Below, piece by piece: positions 32,153 through 35,377 of a stretch of 64,000 nucleotides of DNA (position 1 is its first letter; each line of letters opens with the position of its first letter). The translations under genes were made by a program, and so were the position numbers. The notes under the pieces were generated by a model, which worked only from the letters and a program-made list of their open reading frames with translations, had not been told where the DNA came from and made no database searches. Origin of the DNA: Octopus vulgaris (taxonomy: Eukaryota); contig OX597842.1 in assembly GCA_951406725.2 (NCBI GenBank), forward strand, positions 18,972,001-19,036,000, given 5' to 3'.

Positions 32153-33004
32153 CTTGTGTTAGTAATACCAGCGATTATAATTATTTTTATTTTATCGCAA
32201 TTTGATTTGTTTACATATTTCTCGATAAATTATGAGCGCCAGGCGATATACCAGAATTCCCTAGTTTTGTCGGGACGTTCGGAGTCTGCGCAGTGATATG
32301 ATTAGTTAGGGAGAGTAAATCATTAGACGCACATGCTTCTAGTGAGTTAGGATCCCAGAGAAACAGGGTCTCACTGAAGAATTCTCCCTGAGCAAATAAA
32401 TTATCTTTATTGCTGAAAAGAAAGAAACTGCAGTCTGAGAATTACCGGTTTAGTAAATGTTTTTATCTTCATTTCACTTAATTTATCAAGCTTCTGTATT
32501 CCTAGCACATATTTCGCCTTAATGTACTGATATATGAAAAATATATGGCTTGTGTTAGTAATACCAGCGATTATAATTATTTTTATTTTATCGCAATTTG
32601 ATTTGTTTACATATTTCTCGATAAATTATGAGCGCCAGGCGATATACCAGAATTCCCTAGTTTTGTCGGGACGTTCGGAGTCTGCGCAGTGATATGATTA
32701 GTTAGGGAGAGTAAATCATTAGACGCACATGCTTCTAGTGAGTTAGGATCCCAGAGAAACAGGGTCTCACTGAAGAATTCTCCCTGAGCAAATAAATTAT
32801 CTTTATTGCTGAAAAGAAAGAAACTGCAGTCTGAGAATTACCGGTTTAGTAAATGTTTTTATCTTCATTTCACTTAATTTATCAAGCTTCTGTATTCCTA
32901 GCACATATTTCGCCTTAATGTACTGATATATGAAAAATATATGGCTTGTGTTAGTAATACCAGCGATTATAATTATTTTTATTTTATCGCAATTTGATTT
33001 GTTT
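32153..33004 (+). mobile_element. 396-bp tandem repeat (~2.15 copies) with one hammerhead per full unit; retrozyme/pLTR-like
   Basis: Unit starts cttgtgttagtaatacc at 32153, 32549 and 32945; embedded in (TA)n. Confidence 0.85.
32369..32440 (+). ncRNA. Type I hammerhead ribozyme; second copy at 32765-32836
   Basis: UCUCA CUGAAGA AUUCU-[hairpin]-AGAAA GAAA CUGCAG UC|UGAGA. Stem I 5 bp, palindromic stem III, GUC triplet. The 10.1/11.1 pair is an A-A mismatch. Confidence 0.7.
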
Positions 33005-33929
33005 ATATATATATATATATATATATATATATATATATATATATATATATATATATATATATATATATATATATATATATATATATATATATATATATAT
33101 ATATATATATATATATATATATATATATATATATATATCCATCTATATCTATATATATATATATATATATCCATCTATATATATATATATATATATATAT
33201 ATATATCCATCTATATATATATATATATATATATATATCCATCTATATCTATATATATATATATATATCCATCTATATCTATATATATATATATATATCC
33301 ATCTATATATATATATATATATATATATCCATCTATATCTATATATATATATATATATATATCCATCTATATATATATATATATATATATCCATATATAT
33401 ATATATATATATATATATATATATCCATCTATATATCTATCTATCTATATATATATATATCCATCTATATCTATCTATCTATATCCATCTATATCCATCT
33501 ATATCTATCTATCTATATCCATCTATATCCATCTATATCTATCTATCTATCTATCTATCTATATATATATATATATATATCCATCTATATCTATCTATCT
33601 ATATATATATATATATATATCCATCTATATCTATCTATCTATATATATATATATCCATCTATATCTATCTATCTATATATATATATATATCCATCTATAC
33701 CTATCTATCTATCTATATATATATATATCCATCTATATCTATCTATCTATCTATATATATATATATATCTATATCTATCTATATATATATATATATATAT
33801 ATTCATTCAAACATATAAGGGATGGCCATAATAGGACATCCGACTCACTAGAAAGAGCAGTTAAACTCCAAACCACTAATAGTTGTAATTCTGAAATGGA
33901 AAGAGAAATAAAAACGTTTACCCTCTCCT

Positions 33930-34009
33930 TTCTGGACTATGCATAGTTTCGGCAATCTTTTGTAAATAAAATAAATTTATTTACAACTGGCGTTGCCTCT
34001 TCAGCAGAA
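33930..34009 (-). ncRNA. Type I hammerhead ribozyme
   Basis: UUCUG CUGAAGA GGCAA-[UUGUAAAUAAA/UUUAUUUACAA hairpin]-UUGCC GAAA CUAUGCAUAG UC|CAGAA. Confidence 0.88.
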
Positions 34010-34689
34010 TGCCAAGGATTAGCGTATAGCCACGATGCGATAATAGCCATGCCTCGAGTCTATATGCTATAACTTTTCTCCACACCACCCTCTCTGTCCC
34101 TTTGCTTCACTCTCTGGTACCTCTATCCCGCCCTCTCTCTGCCTTTCTTCTCCCTGCTCCCCCTAAGGTCCATCCCCTTGTCTCTCTTTTCCTCCCGGTC
34201 CCTTTTCTTTCTTTCTACTACACCTCTATCCCGCTCACTCTCCCCCTGCTGACCTGCCATTCTTTCTCTTTTTTTTCTCTTTTTTTCTCTTCTCTCAGGA
34301 CAATCCCCTCGTCTCTCTCTCTCTCTCTCTACCCCCCCCCCGGCTGATCTGCCACCTGCTTTTCTCCTTTCTCCTCTCCCTCTCAGGTCAACCATCTTAT
34401 CTTTCCTTCTCTCTCAGTTCCTATATTTCACTCTCACTGTATCTCGGGTCTGCGAGGGAGAAAAATATAAAAGAAGGAAAAATGGCGCACTGACCACTCC
34501 TGAAAGACGATATGCGGATGTAGTGCGCGGTAGCCCAACAAATGGCCGGCTTCACCCAGAGGTGAGAAGGGCAGCAGCTGAACTGCAATCTTTTTTGTGC
34601 ATGTCACAAAAAATTGTTCAGCAGCTGACCTGGCTACAAACAGAAAGCTGGAAGTACCATCACATAAGGCCACCACCACAGACACCACA

Positions 34690-34872
34690 AAAATATTTCT
34701 ACTTAATGTAGGAGGGCTGCTGCGAGGCAACTGTAAAAGGAAAATCTCATTCCTGAGAGACCTTGTGACATGCAATCAAGCTATATGCATGGCACTCACA
34801 GAAACGCATCTTGGACCCGATATAGGGGATGCAGAAATACACATACCGCAATATGCAGTCATACGCTCAGAC
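34690..34872 (+). mobile_element. APE-type endonuclease N-terminal fragment of a LINE (CR1/Jockey-like)
   Basis: KIFLLNVGGL...ICMALTETHLGPDIGDAEIHIPQYAVIRSD. Confidence 0.75.
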
Positions 34873-35159
34873 AACCGATGTTCTCCAGGGGCTGCAAGCT
34901 ACAGTAACACCCACGCTTAGTGGTTAGCCATATTAAGATGGCTAGAATACCTCACATTATATATATATATATATATATATATATATATATATATATATAT
35001 ATATATATATACGGTTAAGTAATTGAGATTCTAGTGAATTCTAAAGAATTCACATGAATATGGTCCTTAACTAGGATGCACCGGAAATCTATATGGTGTT
35101 AACCATACGACAAGTGGGGTGATTACAAATAGGAAAAAAGCAACAAGAATGGATTAAAA

Positions 35160-35247
35160 TCTCGGTACGATCGTTTCGTACGAGGACATCTTTAATAAGC
35201 TACAAAAAATGCAGTGAATACAGATGGCTCGTACTCGTCAGCCGAAA
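35160..35247 (-). ncRNA. Type I hammerhead ribozyme in a ~260-bp insert between (TA)n tracts
   Basis: UUUCGG CUGACGA GUACGAG...CUCGUAC GAAA CGAUCG UA|CCGAGA. Confidence 0.88.
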
Positions 35248-35377
35248 AAACATCAGAGAATTCCCAAACATATATATATATATATATATATATATATATA
35301 ATTATAATAAAGGGTTATTTGCAACAAGTTGCTTAAACCACATACCGAAAATAATAGAAACAGCAGCCAAATAGGCT

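Follow-up and report, generated by a model that had tools for sequence, protein, structure and literature searches.

Hammerhead motifs in the window

We found eight complete hammerhead motifs in the 64-kb stretch of the Octopus vulgaris genome analysed here (the window), four of them copies in an array near 45 kb (45182-46761, reverse strand; Table 1). All have the type I features: CUGANGA, GAAA, UH, three helices and a helix I that closes. The positions and cores that a sequence-only reading had given for A1, A2, B and C are confirmed, as are its N7 residues A, A, C and U in the four families. It had also counted sequence-distinct elements; this stands for the four families when the array is included, but the interval at 32-35 kb holds three families, because A1 and A2, the pair at 32 kb, do not differ and belong to repeats of a single 396-bp unit.

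Table 1. Hammerheads, the insertions that carry them and neighbouring features (window positions).
Feature	Position	Strand	Description
Family E piece	31449..31697	+	Short inverted 5' part, shared GCUGCUAUUUCUA-type motif, (TA)n at 3' end
(TA)n / (TATC)n microsatellite tract	31698..35300	.	Interrupted by insertions; inferred target
Family A insertion	32142..33004	+	Two identical 396-bp units, 61-bp partial third, 10-bp duplicated start
Type I hammerhead A1	32369..32440	+	Predicted cut after 32435
Type I hammerhead A2	32765..32836	+	Identical to A1; predicted cut after 32831
Family B piece	33805..34015	-	Hammerhead plus 130 nt to RNA 3' end on (TA)n; provisional 5' boundary
Type I hammerhead B	33930..34009	-	Predicted cut between 33935 and 33934
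Unrelated passenger between B and C	34080..34957	+	Pyrimidine-rich stretch and LINE-type endonuclease-like fragment
Family C insertion	35012..35269	-	258 bp, (TA)n both sides
Type I hammerhead C	35160..35247	-	Predicted cut between 35166 and 35165
Family E piece	35301..35570	-	91-nt inverted 5' copy, (TA)n at 3' end
Family E piece	39587..39830	+	Inverted 5' copy, between TA-rich tracts
C', diverged second copy of C	39956..40157	+	3' end on TA/TG microsatellite
Family D	44953..46923	-	Four 491-bp units, RNA 3' end on (TA)n
Family D hammerheads, one per unit	45182-45288, 45672-45778, 46164-46270, 46655-46761	-	

Helix III is a full palindrome in each family (8-12 nt; 8 nt in A and C, 12 nt in B), and the spacer from the core to GAAA, occupied by the helix II domain, is 43, 47, 57 and 68 nt in families A, B, C and D. 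Hammerhead A has a helix I of 5 bp, and the basal pair of its helix II (10.1-11.1) is an A.A mismatch. A strict descriptor (core, helix I of at least 4 bp and palindromic helix III) gave 4 sites in the window, whereas none of 100 block-wise dinucleotide shuffles contained any, and a standard hammerhead descriptor gave 6 matches against a shuffle mean of 0.02 and maximum of 1. Rfam at its gathering score gave no match in the 64 kb, recovering none of the eight motifs. Below threshold, RF00163 (Hammerhead_1) lists family D alone, at 22 bits against the required 34, and A, B and C are absent; its 45-position model has no room for a long helix II. Metagenome scans with one C motif and one D motif gave 0 matches each.

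Two half-motifs were set aside. That at 26617 is a chance match, with no upstream core and no homology to the families, lying within a decayed LINE frame; 0.5 such lone 3' halves are expected per shuffled window. A G.U half-motif at 24682 sits inside a mariner remnant.

Families A, B and D

Family A is flanked by (TA)n on either side, and Tandem Repeats Finder gives a period of 396 with 2.2 copies and units without any difference. In the elements tested, GC is 35% and 36% and the longest stop-free stretch 76 and 80 amino acids, the lower value in each case being that of family A; the scanned frames of families A and C had no Pfam match. The fold of hammerhead A is no better than that of shuffled sequence (z -0.6). 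Against 60 mononucleotide shuffles, pairing of the monomer circle scores z -1.2 for A and z -5.5 for D. At least half of the family A words were found in 20 of 24 listed sequencing runs from 7 studies, which may reflect this locus alone, and the run with the best match may be that of the source sample; no listed match was recorded as RNA, and the search is neutral on expression, the RNA marks being guesses. Family D has exactly 4.0 units, with an identical 7 nt at either end.

B and D are related (local alignment z 16; 70% over 139 nt), and their helix III sequences differ by one two-sided and one one-sided change, with pairing kept in both. Homology upstream of the core, suspected by eye, is not borne out by alignment (p 0.52). 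The sequence-only reading had stems covarying completely between families; this can be judged solely where families align, namely B with D and C with C'.

Family C and its copy C'

We examined family C in contigs of four public sequencing runs (4 of the 24 listed), over a stretch shorter than the element. The family is multi-copy, with 308, 120, 523 and 35 contigs in the four runs, of which the summed depth does not equal copy number. All four runs share a non-TA continuation behind 35271, of which 30 nt are seen, and all four cover the junction of the C 3' end with (TA)n, while the 5' TA junction is covered in none. The copy here is a 5'-truncated version of a longer multi-copy element. Its upstream continuation is absent from the 64-kb window, and the listed contigs contain no go-back joint over the stretch covered.

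Some copies form a subfamily in which 35169 G>A and 35172 C>T co-occur (contigs 16/16, 15/15, 33/32 and 5/5 in the four runs). The double change preserves the palindrome, at positions that would form the loop of a monomer hairpin; the swap is compensatory, and the two positions can pair solely between molecules. The pair represents a single event, and each change is a transition of CpG type. As regards core conservation, assessed within family C only, all 20 variable places lie outside the 15 positions of the core and the 14 of proximal helix II, a pattern that by itself is not significant (p 0.08). None of 6 CpGs in the core, proximal helix II and helix I is variable. In some copies a variant at 35161 disrupts the distal U.G pair of helix I.

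C' matches C at 78% over 107 nt (z 22.7). It retains the distal helix II, GAAA, the cut triplet and a palindrome (40012-40019) that is the same variant as in the subfamily; the CUGANGA half is lost.

Links between families and association with (TA)n

Short motifs downstream of the cuts connect the families. GTAAANGTTTTT occurs 7 times in 64 kb against 0.17 expected, always 13-17 nt past the cuts of A, B and D, and all 3 occurrences of AATTACCGG in the window lie immediately past the cuts of A, A and C'. The recurring tagaaa(t/g)a(g/a)cag motif of the sequence-only reading has 12 matches at up to one mismatch against 2.3 expected; it is exact in B, D, 31538-31549 and 39639, and has one mismatch at 31511 and 35355, but C is unmatched and A has only a looser variant. 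Downstream of the cut, neither A nor C aligns with B or D.

The hammerheads had been described as all beside (TA)n. It is the element ends that abut (TA)n; the motifs themselves do not, since these ends lie 130-234 nt downstream of the cut. All 4 RNA 3' ends are at TA runs, which with 10-nt margins make up 4.6% of the window; the evidence for (TA)n at the 3' end is family-wide for C, and for A, B and D it comes from this window. The supposed hotspot is best understood as one long microsatellite into which several elements have inserted independently: the cluster arises because the 3.6-kb tract presents many targets, and TA remains on either side after every insertion.

No hammerhead was seen in the three family E pieces. 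A weak alignment of B with the 35-kb piece (p 0.013) gave the idea that family E is cut precisely at the hammerhead site. LINE remnants are frequent across the window. In the passenger between B and C, the LINE-type fragment (34684-34878) has Atlas feature matches to Exo_endo_phos clusters (0.94), and the passenger as a whole has no Pfam or PDB match. A link between this fragment and the adjoining hammerhead B is ruled out by its opposite strand.

Predicted dimers and a candidate pseudoknot

The short palindromic stem III had been taken as the mark of hammerheads that cleave as dimers, and predicted folds agree for all families. Palindrome homoduplexes reach -11.1, -15.9, -10.0 and -17.5 kcal/mol in the four families, with hairpins at about 0. 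The active double hammerhead is the predicted minimum free energy (MFE) homodimer for A, C and D and within 0.2 kcal/mol of it for B; the active monomer lies 6.1, 0.5, 4.4 and 3.9 kcal/mol above the monomer MFE. For B and D a monomeric fold, with a helix III of 4 bp, would also be possible. Palindrome duplexes across families are at -7.1 kcal/mol or weaker. These long-armed hammerheads are predicted to cut only upon pairing of two copies. In one tested set of predicted retrozyme dimers, only 1 of 9 cleaved in vitro. A dimer result of Lunse et al. (2017) is reported in a review (PMC6765202).

A candidate pseudoknot pairs the helix I 5' tail with an internal loop of helix II (combined p 0.0013). 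This pairing was noticed post hoc as one of four tried, and C and D are individually not significant; in hammerhead A the tail can alternatively lengthen helix I.

Identity of the elements

We consider it probable (roughly 0.8) that the motifs lie near the RNA 3' end of related multi-copy, non-coding (TA)n repeats that are likely terminal repeats (pLTRs) of Penelope-like elements (PLEs) together with their non-autonomous tandem derivatives (non-LTR retrozymes), with ribozymes predicted to cut as dimers. Observed directly are the complete cores, the palindromic helix III, the tandem units of A and D and, for C, a shared 3' end that joins (TA)n together with loss of the 5' part. As in non-LTR retrozymes, consecutive units each carry a complete type I hammerhead in A (2) and D (4), the usual minimum being two, and the elements are non-coding with GC under about 45-50%; B and C are single pieces. 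As in PLE ends, a type I hammerhead sits near the 3' end inside a repeated terminus, with cuts 130-234 nt from the RNA 3' ends. PLE-like truncation, tandem arrangement and inversion are seen in C (truncated), A (2 units plus 61 bp) and E (inverted), although the 61-bp overhang of A exceeds the published 30-40-bp PLE tail. Insertion into (TA)n, known from the Hydra, Naiad and Neptune clades, holds for 4 of 4 3' ends in the window.

None of the 183 stop-free stretches of the window matched a reverse transcriptase or GIY-YIG domain, so the copies here are not autonomous. Fourteen exact short motifs had no cephalopod match in the consensus files of one paper, searched for PLEs other than Neptune, Nematis and Poseidon and with lines that wrap at 70 letters. 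The same search gave 2 single matches in green-algal entries. The PLE partner is inferred because of these two results. A direct link to Naiad, sought by motifs and by eye, was not found, and the window contains no ORF with the N-terminal GIY-YIG, CxC motif and RT that mark this clade.

By this PLE and retrozyme reading, two transcripts, or adjacent units of one, would pair through the 8-12-nt palindrome into a double hammerhead in which each core would cleave the partner strand. Pairing is predicted to be family-specific because the palindromes differ between families, and the short pseudoknot may stand in for the usual loop-loop contact. The literature suggests that tandem transcripts of A and D would be cut to monomers of 396 and 491 nt, perhaps circularised by a host ligase, and that a PLE protein encoded elsewhere would nick (TA)n, with reverse transcription starting from a fixed position that lies 130-234 nt past the cut. 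Such priming could leave truncated (B, C, C'), inverted (E) and more-than-unit-length (A, D) copies.

Other readings must be weighed. The closest, which overlaps with the above and differs solely on autonomy and circles, takes B, C and C' as the 3' ends, truncated on their 5' side, of PLEs that are autonomous and protein-coding, and A and D as local tandem duplications of such ends without a circular RNA stage, the ribozyme being a passenger or a protein-assisted processing site. We regard it as a real contender at less than even odds. The C 3' end is shared while other copies continue upstream, the family C contigs listed contain no go-back joint over a stretch shorter than the element, in PLEs the hammerhead and the 3' end are about 100-200 nt apart (PMC8557442), an anole PLE inserted in vitro without need for cleavage, and the 4.0 units of D, which begin and end with an identical 7 nt, could also result from unequal crossing-over. 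However, the 2.15 units of A with a 61-bp overhang fit more-than-unit reverse transcription, the D circle outfolds its mononucleotide shuffles, and the 30-nt continuation of C is too short to reveal an ORF.

It is unlikely that the elements are SINE-like repeats which carry hammerheads and owe their mobility to a LINE instead of a PLE, (TA)n then being either a tail of their own or the LINE target: a LINE-type endonuclease fragment does adjoin B, and the window is rich in LINE remnants and yielded no PLE gene, but the fragment runs against hammerhead B, a tRNA head is absent (0 tRNA genes in 31000-47500), A and C have TA on both sides, and partial tandems with inverted 5' copies are a published PLE pattern. 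We judge it just as improbable that the motifs persist as inactive relics, or as satellite decoration, and have no function today. The A.A mismatch and weak fold of A, the loss of half of the C' core and the failure of most predicted retrozyme dimers of one study to cleave would suit this; cores intact in four families despite different stems, the compensatory change inside family C and young, near-identical units argue against it. Chance matches in AT-rich, repeat-rich DNA do account for the lone half-motif at 26617, but with complete motifs at 4 versus 0 in 100 shuffles, and a shared downstream motif at fixed distance from the cuts, chance has a negligible claim on the whole set.

Comparison with known hammerhead elements

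Type I hammerheads, palindromic helix III, many families within a genome and (TA)n targeting are published hallmarks of PLEs and of non-LTR retrozymes (PMC4209133, PMC7229834, PMC8557442), and (TA)n targeting is described with Octopus included (PMC8557442). The sequence-only proposal of a diversified, related set of (TA)n-associated retroelements with dimer-type helix III is upheld, but not as a new superfamily. The element class is known; what differs is the 43-68-nt helix II missed at Rfam thresholds, and a possible pseudoknot.

Metazoan retrozymes are described with mollusc units of 350-390 bp, monomeric derivatives, a proposed origin from PLE pLTRs, and dimer action in axolotl (PMC7229834, bioRxiv 10.64898/2026.07.22.740005). 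Like them, A and D are non-coding, low-GC tandem units with one type I hammerhead each. Unlike them, the helix II domain spans 43-68 nt, where canonical motifs have about 4 bp and a loop, the palindromes of 8-12 nt are fully paired, and the elements target (TA)n, which is not reported for retrozymes in the text of PMC7229834 as available ('microsatellite' appears 0 times). Retrozymes are known as linear and circular monomer RNA, whereas for A and D such circles are a prediction.

The PLE pLTR hammerheads of Cervera and de la Pena (2014, PMC4209133) resemble ours in being type I with a helix I of 4-5 bp, an enlarged helix II with an unpaired base at its start and a palindromic helix III, and in occurring as many divergent families per genome, mainly as single truncated copies, with opposite-strand pairs; their helix II is 7-8 bp and their helix III minimal, whereas both are far longer here. 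Hydra-clade PLEs, including Hydra-1_Obim of Octopus bimaculoides, show a preference for (TA)n, which 26 of the 27 families listed by Craig et al. (2021, PMC8557442) have. They too carry a type I hammerhead, situated some 100-200 nt before the 3' end and with a mismatch at the helix II base, and several rows have a self-complementary helix III; but their spacers are about 11-25 nt (22 in Hydra-1_Obim), and the listed hammerhead has no motif match here. Spacers of about 50 nt are given there for only two Selaginella PLE-X rows, marked as deviating.

Cephalopod Naiad PLEs share (TA)n targeting (5 of 5 listed families) and complex tandem and inverted insertions. Naiad_Ovul and Naiad_Esco are annotated 'HHR_half_core', the two halves being separated by 35-50 nt. 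By eye, the published 3' ends of Naiad_Ovul and Naiad_Obim are without the present architecture, an exact CUGAUGA following GAAAC, and the published consensus files hold no exact motif match to Naiad (all PMC8557442). Pairing of a helix I flank with helix II loop bases is described for about 40% of motifs by Perreault et al. (2011, PMC3088659) in their work on pseudoknot-stabilised hammerheads; they also note that palindromic helix III permits dimers in repeat-type hammerheads; the predicted partner here is the internal loop of a long helix II rather than the helix II loop. We found no literature on octopus retrozymes or on animal long-helix-II PLE hammerheads, which subscription papers, Repbase, Dfam and supplements could hold.

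Significance

The role of hammerheads in PLEs is still an open question (PMC8557442, PMC11167929). These families might represent an overlooked, abundant cephalopod class of long-armed obligate-dimer hammerheads, in which the 43-68-nt helix II and internal-loop pseudoknot evade Rfam and published descriptors and the family palindrome acts as a self-recognition code restricting cutting to like RNAs; we hold this bolder proposal to be doubtful. If true, it would mark a PLE lineage currently scored as hammerhead-less, and natural covariation would be direct evidence of selection on dimer cleavage in animals. The long paired palindromes, the natural compensatory variant and the near-orthogonal pairing of families make direct assays of monomer against dimer, and like against unlike, possible. 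Current searches undercount animal hammerheads, as the recovery by Rfam of 0 of 8 complete motifs at its own threshold illustrates; in the giant squid, 235 Hammerhead_1 loci have been counted (PMC6962438).

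Hammerhead motifs

A structural scan located, at exactly the same coordinates, the four hammerheads that the sequence-only reading had described, and four further motifs in the 45-kb array. With a palindromic helix III required, four sites were found in the window and none in any of 100 block-wise dinucleotide shuffles of it; a standard hammerhead descriptor gave six sites versus a shuffle mean of 0.02. The elements had been called sequence-distinct, which holds for the insert families that we term A, B, C and D (D being the array); the two family A motifs lie in identical units. 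The spacers between CUGANGA and GAAA are 43, 47, 57 and 68 nt in A, B, C and D, and in the fold of each an internal loop separates a short helix from a distal hairpin; the base of helix II in A is an A.A mismatch. No hammerhead reached the gathering score in an Rfam search of the window, the sole weak match being family D (22 bits versus 34).

Hammerheads and related inserts, in window positions
Feature	Position	Strand	Description
Family A hammerheads	32369-32440, 32765-32836	+	structural scan
Family B hammerhead	33930-34009	-	structural scan
Family C hammerhead	35160-35247	-	structural scan
Family D hammerheads	45-kb array	-	structural scan; four motifs
Family A insert	32142-33004		two 396-bp units, 61-bp overhang, 10-bp duplicated start; (TA)n both sides
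Family C insert			258 bp; flanked by two TA runs
Family D			4.0 units of 491 bp
Family E pieces	31449-31697, 35301-35570, 39587-39830		TA-flanked; inverted 5′ parts; without hammerhead
C′	39956-40157	+	broken fifth copy, relative of C (z 22.7); without CUGANGA half

Insert anatomy and copies

The window is animal DNA in which secretin-family receptor exons, microsatellites, SINE-like repeats and remnants of LINE and mariner elements abound, and its repeats resemble those of octopuses. The proposed placement of insertion ends at (TA)n was borne out: the RNA 3′ ends of all four families A–D are at TA runs, which with 10-nt margins make up 4.6% of the window. That of B, 130 nt past the predicted cleavage site (the cut), meets (TA)n at 33805. 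The three family E pieces are mutually related (alignment z 8–12), and the distal helix II hairpin of C′, a diverged C copy, has paired changes relative to C. One 3.6-kb microsatellite tract is thus common to five insertions. The inversion centre of the E piece at 35.3 kb (~35470) is roughly at the expected B-like cut site (weak alignment, p 0.013). Upstream of B is a LINE-type endonuclease-like fragment on the opposite strand (an Atlas lead), without Pfam or PDB match. Beside B, 34080-34957 (+) runs from a pyrimidine-rich stretch through a short LINE endonuclease-like fragment to an abrupt switch into a hairpin-bearing end on (TA)n, and resembles a LINE that has undergone internal deletion or template switching and is joined to B back to back.

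At least half of the family A words were present in 20 of 24 listed public sequencing runs. Family C is multi-copy, since many contigs match it in four runs (308, 120, 523 and 35), with a spread of identities. The junction of its RNA 3′ end with (TA)n was covered in all four, in one by a 74-nt contig with no difference, at a depth (not a copy number) of 448 versus 10–19 for that run's other contigs. None of the four covered the 5′ TA run; all instead have an identical non-TA continuation beyond 35271. The window copy therefore represents a longer element, with a common 3′ end, that is 5′-truncated at this insertion. Of 20 variable places in C, none falls among the 15 positions of the core and the 14 of proximal helix II (p 0.08). 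Distal helix II has four of them and helix III two, and one disrupts helix I at its distal U.G pair.

Relationships among families

The hammerhead families, judged by sequence, likely share a common origin. B matches D at 70% identity across 139 nt (z 16), with no significant homology upstream of the core. GTAAANGTTTTT occurs seven times in the window (0.17 expected), always 13–17 nt past an A, B or D cut, and AATTACCGG three times, directly after the cuts of A, A and C′. The tagaaa motif does recur, in the E pieces, B and D; on the RNA strand it reads CUG(C/U)U(A/C)UUUCUA, ~75 nt past the cut in B and D. Past the cut A and C do not align to B or D, so that complete stem covariation between families is unsupported as a position-by-position claim across A–D.

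Dimer pairing and a possible pseudoknot

Natural variation in family C gives one good indication of dimer pairing. Changes 35169 G>A and 35172 C>T co-occur (contigs 16/16, 15/15, 33/32 and 5/5 in four runs), converting one 8-nt palindrome to another, the variant that C′ also has. Both positions would be in a four-base loop of the monomer fold, where complementarity is useless; in the double hammerhead model they would pair together between molecules. The pair is a single event of two CpG-type transitions; the six CpGs that C has in its core, in helix I and in proximal helix II are invariant. Folding energies point the same way as this pair: predicted palindrome homoduplexes have −10 to −17.5 kcal/mol versus ~0 for hairpins. 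In A, C and D the predicted homodimer MFE is the active double hammerhead, which in B is within 0.2 of it, and the active monomer is predicted to lie above the monomer MFE by 6.1 (A), 4.4 (C), 3.9 (D) and 0.5 (B). Between-family duplexes are predicted at −7.1 or weaker, and pairing is therefore predicted to be family-specific. B and D might nevertheless form a 4-bp helix III as monomers.

In A–D the nucleotides immediately 5′ of helix I are complementary to the internal loop of helix II, on its 5′ side. The match extends over 5 bp in both A (p 0.018) and B (p 0.016) and over 4 bp in C (p 0.076) and D (p 0.14); the combined p is 0.0013, for one of four pairings tried, spotted post hoc. This tail–loop pseudoknot is a candidate; the same tail in A could lengthen helix I instead. 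Pseudoknots serving such a purpose are already known in hammerheads (PMC3088659).

Comparison with known elements

Hammerheads of Penelope-like elements (PLEs) belong to type I and combine a short helix I with an enlarged helix II and a palindromic helix III; they form many divergent families per genome, mostly single truncated copies (Cervera and de la Pena 2014, PMC4209133). Families B and C and the copy C′ resemble truncated ends of PLE type. Non-LTR retrozymes, argued to derive from PLE terminal repeats, consist of tandem units that each carry one type I motif and measure 350–390 bp in a mussel (PMC7229834; bioRxiv 10.64898/2026.07.22.740005); as defined by sequence, A and D qualify as putative retrozymes. 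A (TA)n preference is recorded for 26 of 27 listed Hydra-clade families, including a hammerhead-bearing one of Octopus bimaculoides, and for all five listed cephalopod Naiads (Craig et al., PMC8557442).

The distinctive trait here is the long helix II (spacers 43–68 nt): listed Hydra-clade spacers are ~11–25 nt, and among listed PLE hammerheads only two Selaginella rows, flagged as deviating, have ~50 nt (PMC8557442). The core search of Craig et al. permitted 7–17 nt (PMC8557442). No report of long-helix-II hammerheads in cephalopods was found in the open-access literature searched. The ribozyme elements of the sequence-only reading are real; they are a structural variant of an already known kind. 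None of 183 stop-free stretches scanned in the 64-kb window gave an RT or GIY-YIG match, and 14 short motifs gave no relevant match to published PLE consensus files.

A link to the Naiad "half cores" 35–50 nt apart was not borne out, the Naiad_Ovul and Naiad_Obim ends being, by eye, without this architecture (PMC8557442). Inspected by eye, these 3′ ends (PMC8557442 supplement) have an exact CUGAUGA that is preceded by a core-like string of variant sequence, a 6-bp helix holding a long insert, and GAAAC, with a short potentially pairing stretch downstream, possibly an unrecognised ribozyme fold unlike that of A–D.

The observed motifs, tandem and truncated anatomy, (TA)n junctions and family-level covariation in C could be joined as follows. 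Hammerheads would cleave as dimers, tandem A and D transcripts would be cut into monomers, perhaps circularised, and a PLE protein encoded elsewhere would nick (TA)n and begin reverse transcription from a defined internal position. The protein of the anole PLE nicks AT-rich DNA and initiates at fixed internal RNA sites (PMC11167929), which fits the common C 3′ end. The anole PLE hammerhead is protein-dependent, and its cleavage is dispensable for insertion in vitro (PMC11167929), a warning against taking the cut as essential.

Other features of the window

At 13359-14090 (+) lies a LINE of the restriction-like-endonuclease type, represented by its C-terminal part (zf-RVT match); long (AAT)n runs follow (14180-15002), an arrangement like that of microsatellite-targeting R4/Dong-type elements. 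Near-identical stretches at 741-1412 (frameshifted) and 8556-9125 (both +) encode a secretin-family 7TM region and are a local duplicate or retrocopy. A Mariner/Mos1-type transposase remnant is at 24281-25166 (−). Satellite arrays occupy 28046-31347 (41 bp; strong strand skew, ending at an assembly gap), 36292-36881 (104 bp) and 56593-61058 (72 bp). Long inverted repeats of 105–281 nt, some flanking microsatellites, are at 37181-37990, 41565-42132, 43194-43715 and 51589-51880.
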